64,000 bases of DNA from a virus, in IMG/VR virus record IMGVR_UViG_3300034141_000082; one strand, 5' to 3'. Below are positions 12,438-57,539 of the stretch, piece after piece. Position 1 is the first letter of the stretch, and each line of letters opens with the position of its first letter. The notes beneath the pieces were generated by a model. That model was given only the letters and a program-made list of their open reading frames with translations, was not told where the DNA came from and did not search any database. The translations under genes and the position numbers were made by a program.

Positions 12438-12670
12438 GGCCGGTTCGCCTTCCGGCTGGCCTTCTGCCGGCTGGTCTTGCTGCGCCGCTTCGCCTTCGTC
12501 GCGGCCGACACGGTGCCGCGGTAGACCTGCTTGCCCTGGAGGCCGGCCAGGATCGCCAGCTGGTAGGGCGTGACGGGCTTGATCTTCGGGGCCTCGGTGG
12601 TGCCCTCGACTGGCTCCTGGCGCTTGAACAGTGCGCGGACCTGCTCGCGGATGGAGAGGTTCAGCCTCAT
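12434..12670 (-). CDS. Small basic protein (actinophage-type YxGTV..KAxRRxK)
   Basis: Lys/Arg-rich tail; start-associated leader upstream. Confidence 0.7.
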   Translation of the reverse strand: MRLNLSIREQVRALFKRQEPVEGTTEAPKIKPVTPYQLAILAGLQGKQVYRGTVSAATKAKRRSKTSRQKASRKANRP

Positions 12671-12704
12671 ATCAATTTCCCTTCTCTCGATGTGTGATCT
12701 TGGT

Positions 12705-12890
12705 CTAGCGCTTCTTGCCGGTGAGCTCGTCCATCGTCCAGTAGCCCTCGATGTTCTCGGTCCGGACGGCGCCGCACTCGCAACGCCTCAGCAGCGTCGT
12801 CACGTCGCCACCGGTCCTGATCCAGGTGAAGTGCTTCAGGCGCACCGTGCGGAAACGGTGTCGGTGCAGCCATCTCCATTTCAGGTTCAC
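12705..12890 (-). CDS. Small Cys/His protein
   Basis: AGGAGG RBS; HRF...RCECG. Confidence 0.65.
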   Translation of the reverse strand: MNLKWRWLHRHRFRTVRLKHFTWIRTGGDVTTLLRRCECGAVRTENIEGYWTMDELTGKKR

Positions 12891-12958
12891 GATTCCTCCT
12901 CTCGAAACGACGAAGGGCGGCCTGCCCCAGCAGACCGCCCAGCACCGTCAACGTTCTG

Positions 12959-13222
12959 TCAGGTGCCGGCCCGCCCCGGGGCGCTCTGCGGCCGGGCCAT
13001 CGCGCTGGCGACGACCTCGACGTCCGCCTTGGCGTCGCCGACGAGCTCGGTGGCGATCTCCTTGCGACGCTCGGGCTCGTTCGTCAGGTAGTTGACGAAG
13101 TGGGCCCGGTTGATCCGGCCGCGACTTCCGACCTCGACGCCCTGCTCCTTCAGCCAGGCCCGCACCTCGCTGGCCTGGTAGGGCTGGACGTCGCTGGATG
13201 GCTGGGTGCTCTTGCTGCTCAT
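12959..13222 (-). CDS. Lsr2-like DNA-binding domain without the N-terminal oligomerisation domain
   Basis: EVRAWLKEQGVEVGSRGRI matches the Lsr2 C-domain. Confidence 0.8.
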   Translation of the reverse strand: MSSKSTQPSSDVQPYQASEVRAWLKEQGVEVGSRGRINRAHFVNYLTNEPERRKEIATELVGDAKADVEVVASAMARPQSAPGRAGT

Positions 13223-13309
13223 TTTCGATGTGTCCTCTCGCTCAGGGGTTTTCCATTTCTAAATCTAGGGACGGCTGTCCCGGTGCGCCCCCGCGCGGAG
13301 TTGATTTGG

Positions 13310-13471
13310 TCAGGAGAAAATGCTGCCCCAGATATTCACGATCAGCCAGAGCAGGCACAGCCCGACGAAGACCGCGGCCAGGAGCCCGATGACGACAGCG
13401 ATTCCGCTGGCGGCGTAGGCGAAGACGTCGAGGACGCTCAGCCCCGGGCGCGGCGGCTTGGGCCGGCTCAC
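13310..13471 (-). CDS. Small membrane protein
   Basis: GTGA overlap; long hydrophobic C-terminus. Confidence 0.6.
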   Translation of the reverse strand: MSRPKPPRPGLSVLDVFAYAASGIAVVIGLLAAVFVGLCLLWLIVNIWGSIFS

Positions 13472-14139
13472 CGGAGCACGTTCCGCTGGATCGGGTGGGA
13501 TGAGTAGCCCCTTCGATGCCCGCTGCTGATCCGCAGAGCGGTCTCGATCTCCTGGTGGAGAGCCTCCAGGGTGAAGCCGCGGTAGTTGCGCAGCACGGCA
13601 TCGAATTCCCACTCGTCGAGCGCGGTCTCACTGACATGCCGCAGCCCCTCGCGGTAGGAACCAGTGACGTCCCGCTGGACTCGCCACACCACCCCGCTCC
13701 GCTCCGTAATCGCAGCCGCCTCGTTCGGGAAGCGGCAGTCCGGGATCACGTAGCTGACGCCGGGCTGGAGCCGGTCGAGCAGGGTGTTCACCCAGATCTC
13801 GCTGCTCAGGGTCTGCCGGCCCATCTCGGTGCCGATGCGCTGGAGGACGGCGCGGAACTCGGCGCCGTGGACGGGATGGTCCTTGGCGTCCTCGTAGCCG
13901 TGGGCGCTCTCCAGGCCGGTCCACCGAACGGGCCGACCCGCGTAGTGGTTGTAGCCCACGATCGGGTTCAGCGCCCGCGCGCACTCGCGCACGGCGTCCG
14001 CGAACGCGATCTTGGTGTAGCCGCGGTTCGCGACCAGGTAGTTGGCCGCGGTGTCCTTCCCGGACCTCGCCGGCCCGGCCAAGCCGATCAGCCTGGGCAA
14101 GTCACGCCCGGGTGGCAGGCTCGGATGTTGGGTGGTCAC
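13468..14139 (-). CDS. Deoxynucleoside monophosphate kinase
   Basis: IGLAGPARSGKDT, FADAVR, R..LQRIGTE.GR, IPDCRFPNE, HVSE. Confidence 0.9.
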   Translation of the reverse strand: MTTQHPSLPPGRDLPRLIGLAGPARSGKDTAANYLVANRGYTKIAFADAVRECARALNPIVGYNHYAGRPVRWTGLESAHGYEDAKDHPVHGAEFRAVLQRIGTEMGRQTLSSEIWVNTLLDRLQPGVSYVIPDCRFPNEAAAITERSGVVWRVQRDVTGSYREGLRHVSETALDEWEFDAVLRNYRGFTLEALHQEIETALRISSGHRRGYSSHPIQRNVLR

Positions 14140-14327
14140 ATGTCCTCCAGCTTCAGCCAGACGGTGTCGCCGGCGGTCGATATCAGGTTGCCTTCGCCGT
14201 CCTCTTGGGCCGGCTCGATCTCGACGGCCCGCACGTTGAACAGGCCGCCGTTGTCCTCGTCCATGCCCATCACGAGGTCGTTGTCGTTCGCCAGTGCGAG
14301 CAGGGCGCGCAGCGTCCCAACCCTCAC
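14136..14327 (-). CDS. Hypothetical protein
   Basis: Overlap-coupled. Confidence 0.6.
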   Translation of the reverse strand: MRVGTLRALLALANDNDLVMGMDEDNGGLFNVRAVEIEPAQEDGEGNLISTAGDTVWLKLEDM

Positions 14328-14509
14328 GGCTCGTCCACCAACTCGATGTCGATGTCGACGAGGTCACCCAGGCCCAGCCCCTTGGGCCCGCCCGAAAGCA
14401 CCCCTTGATAGCCCTCCAGCGACAGCCCGGTCTCGTCGTCCAGGTCGACCTGGTCCTCGTCGAGATCCTCGATCTCCAGGTAGCCGGTCACCTTGATTCG
14501 CTGTGCCAT
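14324..14509 (-). CDS. Acidic hypothetical protein
   Basis: GGAGG RBS. Confidence 0.65.
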   Translation of the reverse strand: MAQRIKVTGYLEIEDLDEDQVDLDDETGLSLEGYQGVLSGGPKGLGLGDLVDIDIELVDEP

Positions 14510-14524
14510 TTCAACCTCCTTCTC

Positions 14525-15001
14525 TCAGGCGCCCTGCAACAGGGCGTTGATCTCTCGGTCCAGGTTCTGCGCGATCTGCTCCGCGTGCTGCTTCAGCGCG
14601 ATGCCCAGCAGCAGGGTGAAGCACTGCAACTGGTCCAGCGGGAAGCGCGTCACGACGGAGTGGGGGACGTGCTCGTCGGGGTCCGGCGGCTCGTGGCTGA
14701 AGAGCCGGATGTCCAGCACCGTGGACTGCTTCAGCAGCTGGATGTCGCCGATCCCGCGGACGATGCCCTCGGTGCCCTGCACTGTGTCGCGCAGCATCTC
14801 GTGGTCGATGCGCCAGGCGACGGTCTCCGTGCTCTCGTGGAAGTTGAGCTGCACGGCGAACGGGTCGGCCACGTCCCACTGGAGGACGGTCTTGATCTTG
14901 CCCACCAGGGAGCCGTCGCTGGCGTCGATCAGCTCGGCGACCGACTCCATGTGGACTCGGCTGGATGGGCTCTCCGGGGTTGTGCTGGGCTTCTCGCTCA
15001 T
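14525..15001 (-). CDS. SsgA-like (SALP) cell-division/sporulation protein, copy 1
   Basis: LQWDVADPFAVQLNF..VAW....ML......GIGDI; C-terminal LDREINALL. Confidence 0.75.
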   Translation of the reverse strand: MSEKPSTTPESPSSRVHMESVAELIDASDGSLVGKIKTVLQWDVADPFAVQLNFHESTETVAWRIDHEMLRDTVQGTEGIVRGIGDIQLLKQSTVLDIRLFSHEPPDPDEHVPHSVVTRFPLDQLQCFTLLLGIALKQHAEQIAQNLDREINALLQGA

Positions 15002-15040
15002 CTCCAATATCTCCTCTCTCGATGTGTGATTTCAGTCAGG

Positions 15041-15220
15041 TCATAACCATCGCCGTGCCGACTTGGCCGGCGCCGCGTCCCTGCGCTGCTGGTCGACGAC
15101 GATCGCCGACGCGAAGGCGGCCACGCCCACTCCGAACGCCGCACCGTAGAGCCCGACGATCAGCAGCACGAAGCCGCCGATGCCGAGCAGGTAGGGCGTG
15201 CAGGGCCAGATGCGCCTCAC
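15041..15220 (-). CDS. Small membrane protein
   Basis: Two hydrophobic segments; GTGA overlap. Confidence 0.6.
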   Translation of the reverse strand: MRRIWPCTPYLLGIGGFVLLIVGLYGAAFGVGVAAFASAIVVDQQRRDAAPAKSARRWL

Positions 15221-15585
15221 GGTCCGACCGCCGGGTCGTCGGTCGGCCACTCGCAGTCGCAGTCGTCCTGGTTGTGCTTGGCGACCGGCCCACCGAACTC
15301 TGACCGATCACGCAGGGACTTCAGCAGTGCCTCGCGCTCCTGCTCGACCTTGCACCGGTCGATGCCGAAGAAGTCGGCCATGAGCTGTTCGGGCGAGCGC
15401 GGGTCCTCGACGAGGATGTCCTTGTTGTAGCGCATGTCGTCGACCTGCCAGCTGGCGAGGAACAAGTCCTGTGCCAACAGCCAGTCGATGAACTCCTGGA
15501 CAGTCTCCGCCTTGCCCGACGCGATGACCTGTCGCTGCTTCTCCAGCTCGGGCATCTCGGGCAACCAGTCTCGCGTCGGTGCCAT
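15217..15585 (-). CDS. Hypothetical phage protein
   Basis: EFIDWL...LMADFFGID..KVEQER pattern. Confidence 0.7.
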   Translation of the reverse strand: MAPTRDWLPEMPELEKQRQVIASGKAETVQEFIDWLLAQDLFLASWQVDDMRYNKDILVEDPRSPEQLMADFFGIDRCKVEQEREALLKSLRDRSEFGGPVAKHNQDDCDCEWPTDDPAVGP

Positions 15586-15755
15586 CAGTCCTTCGCTCTC
15601 TCGGGCAGTCGCACCACGTTGAATGCGTTCGCTCCGGTCTCCTGGGTGATCCAGTCGCCGAGGTAGAGCCGCAGCCCGACCTCGTCCACGGTGACCTCGT
15701 CGTGCCCGGTCCGCTTCAGCAGGAACCGCGCCCGCCGGCGCGCCGCCTCACTCAT
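15585..15755 (-). CDS. Hypothetical protein (not in ORF track)
   Basis: MSEAARRRARFLLKRTG..., overlap-coupled on both sides. Confidence 0.55.
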   Translation of the reverse strand: MSEAARRRARFLLKRTGHDEVTVDEVGLRLYLGDWITQETGANAFNVVRLPERAKD

Positions 15756-16074
15756 GGTCGTCGTCCTCGCAGTCGCACTCCTCGCCGATCGCCATCTCGA
15801 TCTCCGTCTTCGCCACGGACATCAGTCCGATGGCCGTCCACGGCGGCGTGCTCGGCCCCGGGATGGTGTGCATGCCCCGCGTGCCGTCGCTCGCCATCGT
15901 CTCGACGACGAGGATGAAGCCGGACACGACCTGTGCACGCCCGTCTCCCAGCGGGTAGAGCGCGTTCATCAGCTGCTGGACGAAGCCGTTCAGGTCGGTG
16001 ACGGGGGCCTCGTCGTTGGACGGCCAGGCTGGCATCCCGTCGGGCATCTCGCCCCCGGGCTGGTTCTCGGTCAT
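15748..16074 (-). CDS. Hypothetical protein
   Basis: GGAGGG RBS. Confidence 0.65.
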   Translation of the reverse strand: MTENQPGGEMPDGMPAWPSNDEAPVTDLNGFVQQLMNALYPLGDGRAQVVSGFILVVETMASDGTRGMHTIPGPSTPPWTAIGLMSVAKTEIEMAIGEECDCEDDDHE

Positions 16075-16412
16075 GTTCCCTCCTTCGTGTCGATCTCGAT
16101 GAACTCGCTGGGATGGAACGGGCCGGGGTCGGCCACGCCCTCGAACCAGATCTCCAGGGGGTAGAGCTCCTTCGGCAGGTGCTGCACGTCCACGACGGTC
16201 AGGAAGCGCTCCTCGCTGGTCCAGCCCTCGGCGTAGACGCTGCCCTCGGCGTTCGCGGGCACCGGCCGGATGCGGTCGCCCCGCTGGACGTCGTTGCCCT
16301 GGATGAACACGCGGTCGCCGTAGATCAGGTTGTTGGTGAACTCCTGGGTGAGATGGATGAAGTTCTCGCCCGTCTCCTCGTCGCGCTCGTACTCGAACTC
16401 GTCGTCAGCCAC
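16071..16412 (-). CDS. Hypothetical acidic protein
   Basis: AGGAG RBS before GTG. Confidence 0.65.
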   Translation of the reverse strand: MADDEFEYERDEETGENFIHLTQEFTNNLIYGDRVFIQGNDVQRGDRIRPVPANAEGSVYAEGWTSEERFLTVVDVQHLPKELYPLEIWFEGVADPGPFHPSEFIEIDTKEGT

Positions 16413-16617
16413 GGGTCTCCTTCTCCGAGTAGGCGCCCTCGGGCACCGGGATCTCCTGGACTCTGCGGCGGACCACATAAGCCCACTTCTCCCACATGAG
16501 CCGGTAGTCGGATCGCAGCTCTTCCCACGGCAGCTGCTCCTCGCCCTCGTCGAACCGCTCGTACAGCCACCGCGCCAGGGGATCGCTCACCCACTTCGCC
16601 GGCTTGTCCTCAGCCAT
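16405..16617 (-). CDS. Hypothetical Trp-rich protein
   Basis: Overlaps the thyX stop. Confidence 0.6.
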   Translation of the reverse strand: MAEDKPAKWVSDPLARWLYERFDEGEEQLPWEELRSDYRLMWEKWAYVVRRRVQEIPVPEGAYSEKETRG

Positions 16618-17308
16618 CCTTCGTCCCCTCGCTGAAGTCGGCGTAGGTCGCCGGCGCGATGCCGCACAGCTGCCGCAGCAACTCCCCGGCCAGGTCGCGG
16701 ATCTCGGCATCCGCCCCGGGGGCGTAGCGCTTGGAGATCACGTCCCGCCAGGCCCGGTGGTTGCCGGTGACGACGATCTTCGTCTCGGTCATGTTGGGGA
16801 GCACGGCACGCGCGGCCTCTCGGGCCTTCTTGCGGTCGAGCCCCTTGTCCTCCAGGAAGCCGACCAGGGACACGTAGGCGCCGCGGGCAGTCTCCATCGC
16901 GTCGTCGAGCACGTCCACGGCCATCTCGTACTCGGCCAGTGCCGGCGGCACGACGTAGTCGACGTCGTCCGACTTCACGAACCGCTGCGACACCTGCGAG
17001 TAGCTGAGATGCCGGTGTCGGATCAACTCGTGCGTCAACGCACGGCTCACGCCCTCGATGTAGAACGTCGCGCTCGCGTGTTCCAGCACGCTGAAGTGCC
17101 CCTGGCTGATGATGTTGCGCAGGTAGGCGGCGTTGTCCCGGCCGCTCGGGTTGGACCAGCTCTGGTAGCAGGCTCGCCCGGCGAACTCGGCGAGCAGGTC
17201 GGCCCGCCGTCCGACGCTCTGCCATGCCGGCGCGAGCTCCTCCATCTTGGTGGCGCCGTTGAAGTCGGCGCCAGCGAGCGCGGTGTGTGCGATCAGGGTG
17301 GCCTTCAT
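16610..17308 (-). CDS. thyX: Flavin-dependent thymidylate synthase
   Basis: EFAGRACY, GHFSVLEH, RHRHLSYSQVSQR, GNHRAW, AEIR. Confidence 0.97.
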   Translation of the reverse strand: MKATLIAHTALAGADFNGATKMEELAPAWQSVGRRADLLAEFAGRACYQSWSNPSGRDNAAYLRNIISQGHFSVLEHASATFYIEGVSRALTHELIRHRHLSYSQVSQRFVKSDDVDYVVPPALAEYEMAVDVLDDAMETARGAYVSLVGFLEDKGLDRKKAREAARAVLPNMTETKIVVTGNHRAWRDVISKRYAPGADAEIRDLAGELLRQLCGIAPATYADFSEGTKDG

Positions 17309-17628
17309 ATTCGATCTCCTCTCAAATATTCCTGAACCGAAACCGGCATGTCGCCGTCGTCGGGGCTCTCGTATCCCCAGCGCTGGCCCGGCATGCCGTG
17401 CACGTCACACGGGCGCATCGCGGCGAAGCCGTGGTTGCGGCAGGCGGGGTCGTCGCCTTCGCGGTCGCACGAGCAGCAGAAGCAGTCCGTCCGCTCCTCG
17501 ACCCAGTCCGTAGCGAGCACCCTGCGCCGGCGGATGATGCCGGGCTCCGTGTGGACCTCCACCCAGGACTCGCCGCCCTTGGGCAGGCGCTTGTGCTCGG
17601 TGATGGAGCGGTCCGGGTAGATGCTCAT
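17305..17628 (-). CDS. Cys/His-rich hypothetical protein
   Basis: CFCCSC..DPACRNH..RPCDVH. Confidence 0.65.
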   Translation of the reverse strand: MSIYPDRSITEHKRLPKGGESWVEVHTEPGIIRRRRVLATDWVEERTDCFCCSCDREGDDPACRNHGFAAMRPCDVHGMPGQRWGYESPDDGDMPVSVQEYLRGDRI

Positions 17629-17819
17629 CAGTCCTCGTCCGGAACGTAGGTCGCCGGCTCACCGGTGAAGCCCTGCACCCAGAACCGCGCCTTCTCCTGG
17701 CACTCGGGTCGGTGGCAGACCTCGGTGGAGGCGTGCGAGCGGTTGAGGTCGATGCCGTCCGGCTGGTTGGTCATGATGCCCTTCCGGGCGTGGCGCTCGT
17801 TGTAGAAGTCCCTGCTCAT
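17628..17819 (-). CDS. Hypothetical protein
   Basis: Overlap-coupled. Confidence 0.55.
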   Translation of the reverse strand: MSRDFYNERHARKGIMTNQPDGIDLNRSHASTEVCHRPECQEKARFWVQGFTGEPATYVPDED

Positions 17820-18103
17820 CCGCCGCCTCCCGGCTGCTTGAACGGCCAGGCGTCGTGCTCGTGGAAGAGGTCGGTCGCGTCGTAGACGAAGGCCGACGCG
17901 CCGTCCAGCAGGTGCTGAACGATGGCGTCCTCCAGGTGCTCGACCTTCTCGTAGTCGGACAGCAGGAAGGTGGCGGCGGTCTGTCCGGGCTGGTTGACTC
18001 GGACGGCCTGCGTCTCGGGGTCGTACTTGATCGTGGATGGGCCGCCGCGCCACACTTCGGTGGCGGGCGCGTAGCGTGGCCGGTCGTCGTCCCAGGGCGG
18101 CAT
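17816..18103 (-). CDS. Hypothetical protein
   Basis: TGATG coupling. Confidence 0.6.
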   Translation of the reverse strand: MPPWDDDRPRYAPATEVWRGGPSTIKYDPETQAVRVNQPGQTAATFLLSDYEKVEHLEDAIVQHLLDGASAFVYDATDLFHEHDAWPFKQPGGGG

Positions 18104-18282
18104 CAGGGCACCTCGTCCAGCTCGACGACGGCCACGATGCGCCAGGCTCGCGAGTCGTGCTTCAGCGCGACCGTCAGCTCAGCCTCCGCGTAGTCGCGGT
18201 CGGGGTAGATGTCCTCTGACCAGTCGGCGGCGATGACGCCGTCCTCGTCCTCGTGGACGAGCATGAATCCCAGCACCTTCAT
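18103..18282 (-). CDS. Hypothetical protein
   Basis: GAGAGGAG RBS. Confidence 0.65.
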   Translation of the reverse strand: MKVLGFMLVHEDEDGVIAADWSEDIYPDRDYAEAELTVALKHDSRAWRIVAVVELDEVP

Positions 18283-18494
18283 GTTGTGCTCCTCTCTGAT
18301 CTCTGAATGTGGAATCTCCGAAATGCCTTCACGAGCAAGATGCCCACGCCGAAGGCGATGACGCACCGCACGATGGTGCGTGCACCGAGAACGCTGAGCG
18401 AAGTCCAGGACACAAGACCGTCCACGATGACGTCGTATCCGAGAAAGATTGCCGCTATCGCGATGTCGAGCGCGAGCTCTTTCTTCCAGCTCAT
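18279..18494 (-). CDS. Small two-TM membrane protein
   Basis: MSWKKELALDIAIAAIFLGY...; ATGA overlap; lower GC. Confidence 0.55.
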   Translation of the reverse strand: MSWKKELALDIAIAAIFLGYDVIVDGLVSWTSLSVLGARTIVRCVIAFGVGILLVKAFRRFHIQRSERSTT

Positions 18495-18580
18495 CGGTCG
18501 GGCTTGGTCAGCCAGATTATGAACGCAAAGAATGCAAGAACCGCCAGCACCATGATGACGTAGGCCGTGTTGTCGTCCAT
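18491..18580 (-). CDS. 29-aa single-TM peptide (not in ORF track)
   Basis: MDDNTAYVIMVLAVLAFFAFIIWLTKPDR; TGGAG RBS; directly after the tRNA-like element. Confidence 0.6.
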   Translation of the reverse strand: MDDNTAYVIMVLAVLAFFAFIIWLTKPDR

Positions 18581-18604
18581 CTCTGATCTCCAATCTCTCG
18601 GTAG

Positions 18605-18650
18605 TGGACGCGGGCGGGCTCGAACCGCTGAACTTCCGTCAAGCGCATCC
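18605..18650 (-). ncRNA. 46-nt tRNA-like minihelix (acceptor stem + T-arm, no D or anticodon arm)
   Basis: GGATGCG/CGCGTCC 7-bp stem with one U.G; T-stem GCGG/CCGC; T-loop TTCGAGC; discriminator A; 14-nt linker. Confidence 0.65.
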
Positions 18651-18660
18651 TCGTACACTT

Positions 18661-18706
18661 ACATTATCGTCTCGCCAGCTCCGCACTTGATAGGCCATTT
18701 AGGTGA
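18661..18706 (-). promoter_or_regulatory. Repeated promoter-like motif (TCACC-N3-ATGG N25 CGA-TAATGT)
   Basis: Same box and spacing as four other copies. Confidence 0.65.
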
Positions 18707-18709
18707 TGC

Positions 18710-18880
18710 TCACACCCAGAAGACCATCATGCCTGCGGCGAAGAACACGCAGCCGCAGAAGAAGCCGAATGCGAATGGCACCAGCCACTTCTCCATCGCG
18801 GACCCTCCATCATTGGTTCGTCGGGCCGGCACCTCGACAGGTGCCGGCCCACGGCTGTGCCGCCCCCGTGGGGCAGCCAT
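18710..18880 (-). CDS. Small membrane protein
   Basis: C-terminal WLVPFAFGFFCGCVFFAAGMMVFWV. Confidence 0.55.
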   Translation of the reverse strand: MAAPRGRHSRGPAPVEVPARRTNDGGSAMEKWLVPFAFGFFCGCVFFAAGMMVFWV

Positions 18881-19122
18881 CAGTCTTCCTTCGCCCATTC
18901 GGCACCGATGATGCGGCTGTTCCGAATGGTCAGCTCCACGACGCGCAGATCCTCTGGATTCCTCCGCACGTAGTTGGAGATCGCGTAACCCACTTGCGCG
19001 TCCTGTCCGGTGAGCCAGCTTCTTCCGTCGCTGGTGAAGACGCGGTAGGTAGGGTTGCCGTTGTTGCTGTAGCCCTTGCGTTCGATGCGGGTGATGACGC
19101 ACTTCTCGGTCAGGGTCTTCAT
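18880..19122 (-). CDS. Hypothetical protein
   Basis: S.NGNP.Y.V pattern; TGATG coupling. Confidence 0.65.
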   Translation of the reverse strand: MKTLTEKCVITRIERKGYSNNGNPTYRVFTSDGRSWLTGQDAQVGYAISNYVRRNPEDLRVVELTIRNSRIIGAEWAKED

Positions 19123-19325
19123 CAGTCCGGCCTCCCTTGCTCGTCGAAGTAGGTCACGGTGTTGATGAGCCCTTGCGCTCTTCGCACCGTCGCGCTCTCG
19201 CTCATGTGCATCAGGCAGCAGGGCGCGCTGTAGACGAACATGAGGGCCGTGGTCTCGTGCCCCACCATCAGGCATGGAGCGCACGGATACGTCTCCGGCG
19301 GCAGGCTCATGTCCAACACGCTCAC
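19122..19325 (-). CDS. Cys-rich hypothetical protein
   Basis: CAPC...CCLMH; overlap-coupled. Confidence 0.6.
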   Translation of the reverse strand: MSVLDMSLPPETYPCAPCLMVGHETTALMFVYSAPCCLMHMSESATVRRAQGLINTVTYFDEQGRPD

Positions 19326-19702
19326 GCCAGCGCCCCCTCGTACTGCTCCACGGTGGCGCCGTCCGCTCGCACGATCAACGCCACGCCATCACCGAATTCG
19401 TACTTGTCGCCGGCCACGCGCAGGGCCAGCTGGCCCCGCTCGTACAGCACCTCGACGTCCGCCCTCCCGTACCCGGCCATGCGCTTCGCCGTCGTGCCGG
19501 TGGTCCAACCGCCGTGGTTGTAGACCACGTCGCCGTTCGGCTTGAAGATGAGCACGTTGGTCTGGCGGTAGCGCACCGCGATGTCGGGCTTGATCTCGCC
19601 GGGGGTGTCGAGCTCGACGAGGCTCGTCTCCTCGCCCGGCAGCTTCACGCTGGGGAGCGTGCCGAGCACGAGGTCAGCACGCTGGTATGTTCCGATTCTC
19701 AT
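19322..19702 (-). CDS. Hypothetical phage protein
   Basis: GGW.T.TT.KRM motif; AAGGA RBS. Confidence 0.7.
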   Translation of the reverse strand: MRIGTYQRADLVLGTLPSVKLPGEETSLVELDTPGEIKPDIAVRYRQTNVLIFKPNGDVVYNHGGWTTGTTAKRMAGYGRADVEVLYERGQLALRVAGDKYEFGDGVALIVRADGATVEQYEGALA

Positions 19703-56450: not shown

Positions 56451-57539
56451 TCACGCGGTCCCGCGCAGTAACCGAAGGTTTCCGCCGTTCTCGGCCGGCG
56501 GGGTCAGCAGTTCGGGGCGGTGCTCCACCACGTAGCAGTCGCGCTCGTCCTCGCAGTCGTGCATGGGGTGCAGCTCCCCGGTCATCGAGCTCCACCCGCA
56601 CGCCACCTCGGCCAGCCCGACCCGCACGTAGGTGCTGGTGACCGTGGAGCTCATCGAGTGCCCGGCCCACGTGGCCGCCACCACGAAGCTGGACGCGCGC
56701 TCCATCCGGGTGACCGCGGTGTGCCGCATCCAGTGGCAGGAGACGCCCAGCTCGGCGCCCCACCCGGTGATGGCCCTCAGCACGTCCCAGTCGTCCTCCA
56801 GGCGGTGCCTGGACCAGTCGTAGAGGGTGGACGTGGGTCGGGCCAGCTCGGCCGCCAGCGACGCCGACAGGGGCAGCACGCGGGTCTTGCGGCCCTTCTC
56901 GGTCACCATCACCGTGCGGGTCGCGGCCCGCACCGCCCCGGGCTCCAGGTTCAGCAGGCCCTCCCGCCTGGACCCGGTCTCCAGCAGCCAGCGCAGCATC
57001 CACATCGTGCGCTCGTGGTGGCGGGTCGCCACGGTCAGCAGTTCGGCGGTCTGGGTCCGGGACAGCGCGTGCCGCTCGGACTGCCCGCGGGCGGGCTTGG
57101 GGACCGACAGGGCGACGTTGCGCTCGACCAGGCCGTCCTTCAGCGCCGCGCCGAACAGGTGCCGGGCCGCGGCGACGGCGTGCTCGGCCGAGGACTGCCC
57201 GCCGTGGTGGCGCCGGCGGACCGCGGTGTCGCGCGCGGTGCGGGCCAGCTCGGCCACGTCGCTGGGCACGATGTCGCGCAACGGACGCTCGCTCCAGCTG
57301 GACTCGATCAAGGTCAGGGCCCGGCCCCAGGCGCTGATGGTGCCCGGCGTCAGGCCGGATCGGATGCGGGGAAGGTAGTCACCCACCGTGATGTCTGCGG
57401 TCATGGTCCAGGCATCGGCACGCCGTCCGGCGGCCTTGAACGCCCCGCCACCCACTGTGAGTAGCCGATTACTTTTGCTGGTGTCCGAGGGGGGACTCTG
57501 CCGGTCACTCTCAGTTGCCTGTCCGTTTCGTCGTGTCAT
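56451..57539 (-). CDS. int: Tyrosine recombinase/integrase (alternative start 57404)
   Basis: Catalytic R (TGSRR), K (EKG), HxxR (HWMRH), H (WAGH), Y (STYV). Confidence 0.88.
   Translation of the reverse strand: MTRRNGQATESDRQSPPSDTSKSNRLLTVGGGAFKAAGRRADAWTMTADITVGDYLPRIRSGLTPGTISAWGRALTLIESSWSERPLRDIVPSDVAELARTARDTAVRRRHHGGQSSAEHAVAAARHLFGAALKDGLVERNVALSVPKPARGQSERHALSRTQTAELLTVATRHHERTMWMLRWLLETGSRREGLLNLEPGAVRAATRTVMVTEKGRKTRVLPLSASLAAELARPTSTLYDWSRHRLEDDWDVLRAITGWGAELGVSCHWMRHTAVTRMERASSFVVAATWAGHSMSSTVTSTYVRVGLAEVACGWSSMTGELHPMHDCEDERDCYVVEHRPELLTPPAENGGNLRLLRGTA
57479..57497 (-). other. Candidate attP core matching a tRNA 3' end (tRNA-Leu(GAG)-like)
   Basis: AGTCCCCCCTCGGACACCA = end of T-loop + CCCCC + CTCGGAC + A + CCA; next to or inside int. 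The tRNA-Leu assignment is from memory. Confidence 0.75.

Follow-up and report, generated by a model that had tools for sequence, protein, structure and literature searches.

The window, a stretch of 64,000 nucleotides of viral DNA (IMG/VR record IMGVR_UViG_3300034141_000082), encodes a true but far diverged SsgA-like protein (SALP) that has the fold of SsgB and is carried by a temperate actinophage. Four independent lines of evidence, namely the Pfam match, profile comparison with solved structures, fold comparison, and an independently made structural model, place this protein (SALP1) among the SALPs. The SsgA/SsgB family acts in septum placement in filamentous actinomycetes, and SsgA-like proteins also control sporulation. 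SALPs encoded by phages are a kind of protein already known, and SALP1 is a new and unusually divergent member of it. By analogy with what the family does in its hosts, an effect of SALP1 on host septation, such as the blocking of cross-walls or a route for the phage into spores, is plausible.

The SALP1 gene lies on the minus strand, and a reading of its frame gives exactly the coordinates that the original prediction had assigned to it (Table 1). It starts with an ATG at 15001 and ends with a TGA at 14527-14525, with 158 codons before the stop. The fraction of GC is 0.96 at third codon positions (GC3) versus 0.37 at second positions (GC2) in a window of 68% GC overall, which is the coding pattern of real genes from a high-GC organism. 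Long plus-strand reading frames overlapping the gene fail this GC3/GC2 filter. The public gene call (P0002) begins at Met18 and yields a form of 141 amino acids. The longer start is favored because it has its own Shine-Dalgarno sequence and because the N-terminal extension is common to the homologs P0003 and P0008, with P9 and R15 invariant. SALP1 belongs to a closely packed run of minus-strand genes, with gaps of 39 nt to the upstream neighbor (15041-15250) and 15 nt on the downstream side, and no sigma-70-like promoter was found in positions 12500-19500, which include its surroundings. The largest contig bearing the gene is 76.5 kb long.

Table 1. Positions in the window of SALP1, its sequence elements, and the other features discussed in the text.
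Feature	Position	Strand	Basis and remarks
SALP1 (P0001), divergent SsgA-like protein, 158 aa	14525..15001	minus	Open reading frame and translation; stop codon within coordinates
Shine-Dalgarno AGGAG of SALP1	15011..15015	minus	Sequence reading; 9 nt upstream of the ATG at 15001
Acidic, proline-rich insertion loop of SALP1, codons 103-113 (H-E-P-P-D-P-D-E-H-V-P)	14689..14721	minus	Alignment with 11 cellular SALPs
ThyX (flavin-dependent thymidylate synthase), upstream anchor	16610..17308	minus	Pfam Thy1 E 2.6e-54; syntenic in L001, L002, L005
Deoxynucleotide monophosphate (dNMP) kinase-like gene, downstream anchor	13468..14139	minus	Pfam DNMK 41.8 bits; syntenic in L001, L002, L005
Lsr2-like, 87 aa, DNA-binding domain only	12959-13222	minus	84% and 75% identity in related phages
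Lsr2, full length (dimerization and DNA-binding domains)	2660-2998	plus	
SALP2 (P0004), 146 aa	33562..34002	minus	Pfam SsgA 26.8 bits, profile positions 1-93 of 98
20-bp tRNA 3'-end-like (att-like) core	57479-57498	minus	Inside integrase reading frame 56451-57539

The core signature of the family (L.Y...DP.AV...F, W, G.GD) is complete in SALP1, with the Y replaced by W, and the residues originally cited as a SALP signature are all present: L40-x-W42, D46-P47-x-A49-V50-x-L52-x-F54, W63, and G83-x-G85-D86. A search with the Pfam SsgA model (PF04686), the check that had been named for this assignment, scored 32.1 bits (E 1.1e-7) against a curated cutoff of 25 bits, with a match covering only positions 2-55 of the 98 in the profile, its N-terminal half. 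The same model gave 26.1 bits for the ortholog P0003 and 24.3 bits, slightly under the cutoff, for the ortholog P0008. When the single SALP1 sequence was searched against the PDB with phmmer, the sole match was SsgB of Streptomyces coelicolor (6SLC, E 0.0027), and a profile built from 6 SALP1 homologs reached the same protein at E 6.9e-8 over residues 43-155 of its 157-residue chain. This profile alignment spans nearly the whole of SsgB, including both C-terminal helices. These E-values and the fold result rule out a chance match to the signature motif. HMM, profile, and fold together thus bear out the identification of a phage-encoded SALP. SALPs are small single-domain proteins of 120 to 150 amino acids (PMC2440963); of the 158 residues of SALP1, residues 1-14 lie outside the fold, and the folded part comprises about 140.

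An AlphaFold2 model of SALP1, computed from an alignment of homologs (pLDDT 84.6, pTM 0.75), consists of a disordered tail rich in proline and serine (residues 1-14), a beta-barrel core (15-121), and 2 C-terminal helices (122-155), and DSSP assigns 8 strand segments and 3 helices to it. The SALP fold, as seen in 6SLC and 3CM1, is an alpha+beta fold in which a seven-stranded barrel is covered by 3 helices (PMC8061694). In a Foldseek search of the PDB, the best 8 matches were all SsgB chains (E 1.2e-8 to 4e-5), with TM-scores to SsgB of 0.69 to 0.76 when normalized by the target. VIA-align gave Z-scores of 16.2, 16.0, and 15.6 for 6SUJ, 6SLC, and 3CM1, with 119 to 129 residues aligned, and an independent model of SALP1 from the ESM Atlas has TM-scores of 0.74/0.79 to an SsgA cluster. 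Three elements set SALP1 apart from cellular SALPs: a disordered N-terminal tail of 17 amino acids, an insertion of 4 amino acids before GxGD, and an acidic, proline-containing loop of 9 to 11 amino acids. This loop lies between the last 2 strands and is without counterpart in cellular SALPs; it occurs in 3 of 3 orthologs, with D107 invariant, and the mean pLDDT in the 10-residue block that covers most of it (101-110) is 66.

After SsgB, the next folds in the VIA comparison are MRP1/2, Whirly, and OspE at Z 8-9, and the whirly fold class is related to SsgB (PMC8061694). SALP1 could therefore be imagined as a Whirly-type binder of single-stranded nucleic acid in phage replication or recombination, since it shares a fold class with MRP1/2, Whirly, and PUR-alpha (Z 7-9.4) and sits among DNA-metabolism genes. 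We regard this as very unlikely, because SsgB at Z 16 ranks far above these nucleic acid binders and is homologous to SALP1 in sequence as well. Moreover, SALP1 is acidic (pI 4.8, net charge -12), as are all its relatives, which makes it unsuited to nucleic acid binding and leaves it without the basic surface expected of such a protein.

The distance of SALP1 from the cellular members of its family was gauged against 11 SALPs from 2 Streptomyces genomes and from Micromonospora, Spirillospora, and Geodermatophilus genomes, which score 66 to 131 bits against Pfam SsgA. In a joint alignment, SALP1 is 28% identical to Streptomyces SsgB, its closest cellular protein, 22.7% to an SsgA-like sequence of Streptomyces sp. 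I6, 22% to gp31 of phage Dagobah, and 17% to SALP2, a second SALP of the same phage. Thirty positions are invariant or almost so among 10 cellular SALPs; SALP1 keeps 16 of these and has lost 14, and Dagobah gp31 keeps 24. Those kept include, in SsgB numbering, L27, D33, P34, A36, V37, F41, W51, L58, G67, G69, D70, and E120 (E141 of SALP1), and the changes include Y29W, R55H, L57M, G61T, V71I, P75K, G93H, A95V, V115L, P116K, and G118H. Several of these fall in the loop between helices alpha2 and alpha3, where VPPGTE of SsgB corresponds to LKQHAE of SALP1, so that only E120 of the VPxGxE motif is left, and R55 has become a histidine. In SsgB, V115, G118, and E120 and the salt bridges to R55 fix the angle of helix alpha3, and substitutions in this loop tilt septa or rotate the division plane (PMC8061694).

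These changes bear directly on orthology. An SsgB ortholog would be recognized by the VPxGxE loop, by R55, and by near-invariance within its lineage; SALP1 has neither the loop motif nor the arginine, and its identity falls to 32% between related phages. As for SsgA, the identity of 22.7% is below that to SsgB, and the phylogenetic tree gives no supported grouping with the SsgA-like sequence. Lacking the VPxGxE loop and R55 and being this divergent, SALP1 is therefore a member of the family that is an ortholog of neither SsgA nor SsgB.

Relatives of SALP1 are rare in sequence databases. An exhaustive HMMER search of 1.8 billion representative proteins returned only 5 matches to SALP1, and 2 of these, the long repeat proteins P0009 and P0011, look spurious by their Pfam content. 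No relative of SALP1 was found in IMG/VR, JGI metagenome contigs, or GTDB genomes, tblastn of SALP1 and SALP2 against 50,697 phage records gave no meaningful match up to E 10, and PHROGs held no family for SALP1, SALP2, Dagobah gp31, or gp200 of phage Annadreamy. The two orthologs are P0003, 78% identical to SALP1 and encoded on a 41-kb contig of SRR16016013, and P0008, 32% identical and encoded on a 17.6-kb contig of SRR27563696. Both contigs are syntenic phage sequences, with ThyX, small genes, the SALP, the dNMP kinase, and Lsr2-like and RuvB-like genes. A third group (P0010, P0012, and P0013) is about 24% to 28% identical to SALP1 in the joint alignment, and the contig of this group is also phage-like, with ParB-like, PAPS-reductase-like, and HNH genes.

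Maximum-likelihood phylogeny puts SALP1, the P0010 group, SALP2, and Dagobah gp31 on 4 separate long branches, with a backbone that lacks resolution. SALP1 has its own clade (support 87/80), and such a backbone does not allow its placement in any one cellular SALP subfamily. The tree argues against a recent capture of SALP1 from a host. SALP1 is a long-standing resident of this phage lineage, because its orthologs occupy the same site between ThyX and the dNMP kinase, cellular proteins reach at most 28% identity, and it forms a clade of its own. It is also among the fastest changing of the syntenic genes, with 32% identity where the RuvB-like protein has 83% and SALP2 has 61%. Nei-Gojobori dN/dS values are about 0.6 for SALP1, about 0.22 for SALP2, and 0.22 to 0.38 for the neighboring enzymes; the extreme GC3 bias inflates these figures in absolute terms, and only their ranking was used. 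Fast evolution of this kind would be expected of a gene for host interaction, and a ratio of about 0.6 is also compatible with simple relaxed constraint. It is this relatively high ratio that could suggest a decaying passenger gene without function for the phage, a reading that we consider most improbable given that SALP1 has an unbroken frame behind a good Shine-Dalgarno sequence, that the gene holds the same locus in 3 phages diverged to 32% identity, and that the residues which determine the fold persist in a protein whose fold prediction is confident.

The second SALP of the phage, SALP2, heads the same leftward arm, in a stretch of lower GC opposite the Prim-Pol gene. Its orthologs, with 87% and 61% identity, come from the same 2 samples as the SALP1 orthologs and again stand at the head of the arm, and both SALPs have therefore been kept throughout this small clade of 3 phages. 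The AlphaFold2 model of SALP2 is of low confidence (pLDDT 59) and shows the same order of secondary-structure elements as SALP1. By eye, the C-terminal helix of SALP2 is nearer to SALP1 than the rest of the protein, with 8 of 23 residues identical; this weak additional similarity would fit an old duplication within the phage lineage. One could conceive of SALP1 and SALP2 as a phage-borne, two-component module for division-site choice, analogous to SsgA plus SsgB of the host, which would reposition or disable FtsZ and wall synthesis in infected hyphae. If so, the phage would bring with it the means to decide where its host divides, or whether it divides at all. We consider such a module improbable. 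A complex prediction for SALP1 with SALP2 scored 0.01, which counts neither for nor against binding.

The window as a whole is the genome sequence of a new, uncultured, temperate phage of high-GC actinomycetes. Its genes include a Prim-Pol primase, an exonuclease, a collagen-like tail fiber, a large terminase, a DnaE-type polymerase, and a tyrosine integrase, hallmarks that confirm the phage context in which SALP1 had been placed. The closest cultured relatives of this phage infect Streptomyces, and its DnaE is only about 40% identical to those of Streptomyces phages, Lannister and Asten among them. The window had no nucleotide match among the 50,697 phage records, as judged by megablast of positions 13000-17000. 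SALP1 sits between ThyX and the dNMP kinase. In one of the related phages (L002:4083-5720, SRR27563696), the ThyX ortholog has 545 amino acids and carries an intein-splicing domain between 2 Thy1 halves; the ThyX of the window is without an intein. Just downstream of ThyX in coding order, a cysteine-rich reading frame of 107 amino acids (17305-17628, minus strand) has good coding statistics and belongs to no Pfam family. A scan for a Cys motif and a Pfam scan of 40 reading frames detected no WhiB gene in the window. A gene for an Lsr2 DNA-binding domain lies within about 1.3 kb of SALP1, both in the window and in the related phage with the intein, and SALP genes also lie close to Lsr2-like genes in the cluster BE phages described below; this repeated proximity may be due to chance.

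The integrase gene contains a 20-bp core that resembles the 3' end of a tRNA gene and an attachment site. This core has exact matches in 21 actinomycete genomes, from Streptomyces, Pseudonocardia, Micromonospora, Crossiella, Spirillospora, and other genera, with identity not extending beyond the core. In only about 3 of them (Streptomyces diacarni, a Streptomycetales MAG, and Actinopolymorpha alba) does it end an intact tRNA-Leu-like gene, and elsewhere it stands alone, like the remnant of an attachment site. The distribution suggests a widely used integration site. Since the core matches many actinomycete genera, it does not single out one genus as the host.

With regard to function, we tentatively favor, with a little less than even confidence, the explanation that SALP1 is a mimic of host SALPs made in lytic growth, and that its net effect is interference with the sporulation-specific division machinery. 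Within the closely packed genes of the leftward arm, SALP1 would be translated from its own Shine-Dalgarno sequence. Its synthesis probably takes place while the phage replicates lytically in vegetative hyphae, because it shares this arm with genes of nucleotide metabolism and recombination (ThyX, dNMP kinase, Lsr2-like, and RuvB-like), a timing read from gene order alone. By retaining the SALP scaffold, it could occupy the partners of host SALPs, among which FtsZ, SsgA/SsgB, SepG, and cell-wall enzymes come into consideration, and without the alpha2-alpha3 loop motif and R55 of SsgB it would not do the job of SsgB faithfully. It would then titrate or mislocalize the sporulation-specific division machinery, and the infected mycelium would be held in a vegetative and susceptible state, with the way closed to aerial hyphae and spores, which are septated and tolerate phage.

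Interference is suggested because the SsgB loop residues are lost, because SALP1 evolves fast, because host development limits phage, and because the WhiB protein of phage TM4 offers a precedent. Host development limits the spread of phages, and at an early stage of infection developmental genes undergo repression (PMC10117723). WhiB of TM4 blocks septation by inhibiting the transcription of host whiB2 (summarized in PMC7650747). The direction of the effect, a block or a trigger of septation, is the least certain step of this explanation. Divergence from SsgB does not prove antagonism, since the cellular proteins SsgC-G are likewise divergent and act positively on wall remodeling. The loss of 14 of 30 positions, loop motif included, and the fast evolution argue at the level of sequence against a simple additional SsgA or SsgB role.

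The main rival to interference is that SALP1 triggers septation, behaving like over-produced SsgA. Ectopic septation or wall remodeling in vegetative hyphae would then compartmentalize or fragment the infected mycelium and weaken the wall, easing lysis, release, or the dispersal of infected or lysogenic fragments. The intact SALP fold and N-terminal core signature of SALP1 are consistent with such activity, and a raised level of SsgA is by itself enough to increase septation and fragmentation, with a sensitivity to heat, sucrose, and SDS that points to a weakened wall (PMC2440963). All SALPs have been proposed to recruit wall-modifying enzymes (reviewed in PMC2440963), and dispersal of Streptomyces mycelium driven by a prophage is on record (PMC11302927). 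However, SALP1 is only distantly similar to the SsgA-like sequence (22.7% identity) and has lost almost half of the near-invariant positions (14 of 30), additional cross-walls would be expected to restrict rather than aid the spread of a phage along a hypha, and there are no lysis genes next to SALP1. We consider a triggering role possible and on the unlikely side.

Returning to interference, this explanation shares with the triggering role the premise that SALP1 acts on division, and a further alternative departs from this premise. The SALP scaffold may have been reused as a small adaptor for a phage or host protein, in replication, anti-defense, or superinfection exclusion. SALP1 lies in a module for replication and nucleotide metabolism, as Dagobah gp31 does, it evolves rapidly, it is missing key functional residues of SsgB, and neither a PHROG family nor any other annotation narrows down its function. 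Against this, SALP genes have been kept in at least 5 separate phage lineages, of which all the cultured ones infect Streptomyces, and the simplest account of this retention is a role linked to what SALPs do in the biology specific to these hosts. A function outside division accordingly appears improbable to us.

In filamentous actinomycetes, the choice of division sites is under positive regulation by SALPs. Sporulation is part of the means by which Streptomyces contains phage infection (PMC10117723), and for these two reasons together phage SALPs are natural probes of the SALP surfaces that are important. They are also candidate agents by which phages would counter the escape of the host into development. 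The general idea that a phage SALP alters host development is already in the literature and is not original here: Hardy et al. 2020 found an ssgA homolog in Streptomyces phage Dagobah and suggested a role for it in the manipulation of development (PMC7650747), and Luthe et al. 2023 listed ssgA among the phage genes that possibly do so (PMC10117723). Our literature search found no functional test of a phage SALP. What the present clade adds is a very divergent SALP and 2 co-conserved SALPs in a single phage, the first such case in this analysis, and with them a widened sequence space for work on SALP structure and function. SALP1 in particular offers a clean case in which to ask whether septation is blocked or triggered by a SALP that lacks the motif of the alpha2-alpha3 loop, and its value is that of a good candidate and not of a discovery.

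Among known proteins, SALP1 is best compared with SsgB of S. coelicolor (6SLC/6SUJ) and Thermobifida fusca (3CM1), the archetypal, FtsZ-recruiting SALP. The two share the fold over the whole chain, acidity, and full-length profile homology, along with DPxAV...F...W...GxGD, P100, L104, F107, E120, and the C-terminal LDxE(L/I)..LL helix. In contrast to SsgB, SALP1 is phage-encoded and just over one-quarter identical (28%), has lost the VWP motif, carries an extra tail and 2 insertions, and has the loop and R55 replaced. SsgB varies by at most 1 residue within a genus (PMC8061694), whereas SALP1 falls to 32% identity between related phages.

Nearer in kind are the SALPs of other phages. A "hypothetical protein" similar to Dagobah gp31 is encoded in 22 records of cluster BE Streptomyces phages. 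In Annadreamy, the sole BE record scanned with Pfam, this protein (gp200; NC_048719; L041:1429-1815) is a clear SALP, with 52.4 bits against Pfam SsgA over profile positions 1-97 of 98. As with SALP1, the gene is a phage SALP near an Lsr2-like gene, within about 1 to 1.5 kb of it, and gp200 of Annadreamy lies about 900 bp upstream of its Lsr2-like gene. Cluster BE phages, however, are lytic and jumbo-sized (about 130 kb), and their SALP is nearer to the canonical family and without detectable pairwise similarity to SALP1. Dagobah gp31 (MT711977, HUN42_00031), annotated in GenBank as "SsgA family sporulation/cell division regulator", has 154 amino acids and is likewise encoded in a region of replication and nucleotide metabolism, beside a primase/polymerase and a dCMP deaminase. 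It is near-canonical, with 74.7 bits against Pfam SsgA and 24 of 30 positions, versus 32.1 bits and 16 of 30 for SALP1. At 22% identity to SALP1, it is not detected by tblastn and occupies a separate branch of the tree, and Dagobah has one SALP whereas the phage of the window has two. WhiB of TM4 is comparable by functional analogy only: it too is a phage copy of a host regulator of development and division, and it antagonizes the host version and blocks septation (summarized in PMC7650747). In contrast to SALP1, it belongs to another protein family, that of Fe-S transcription factors, and acts on transcription and not on the division machinery.
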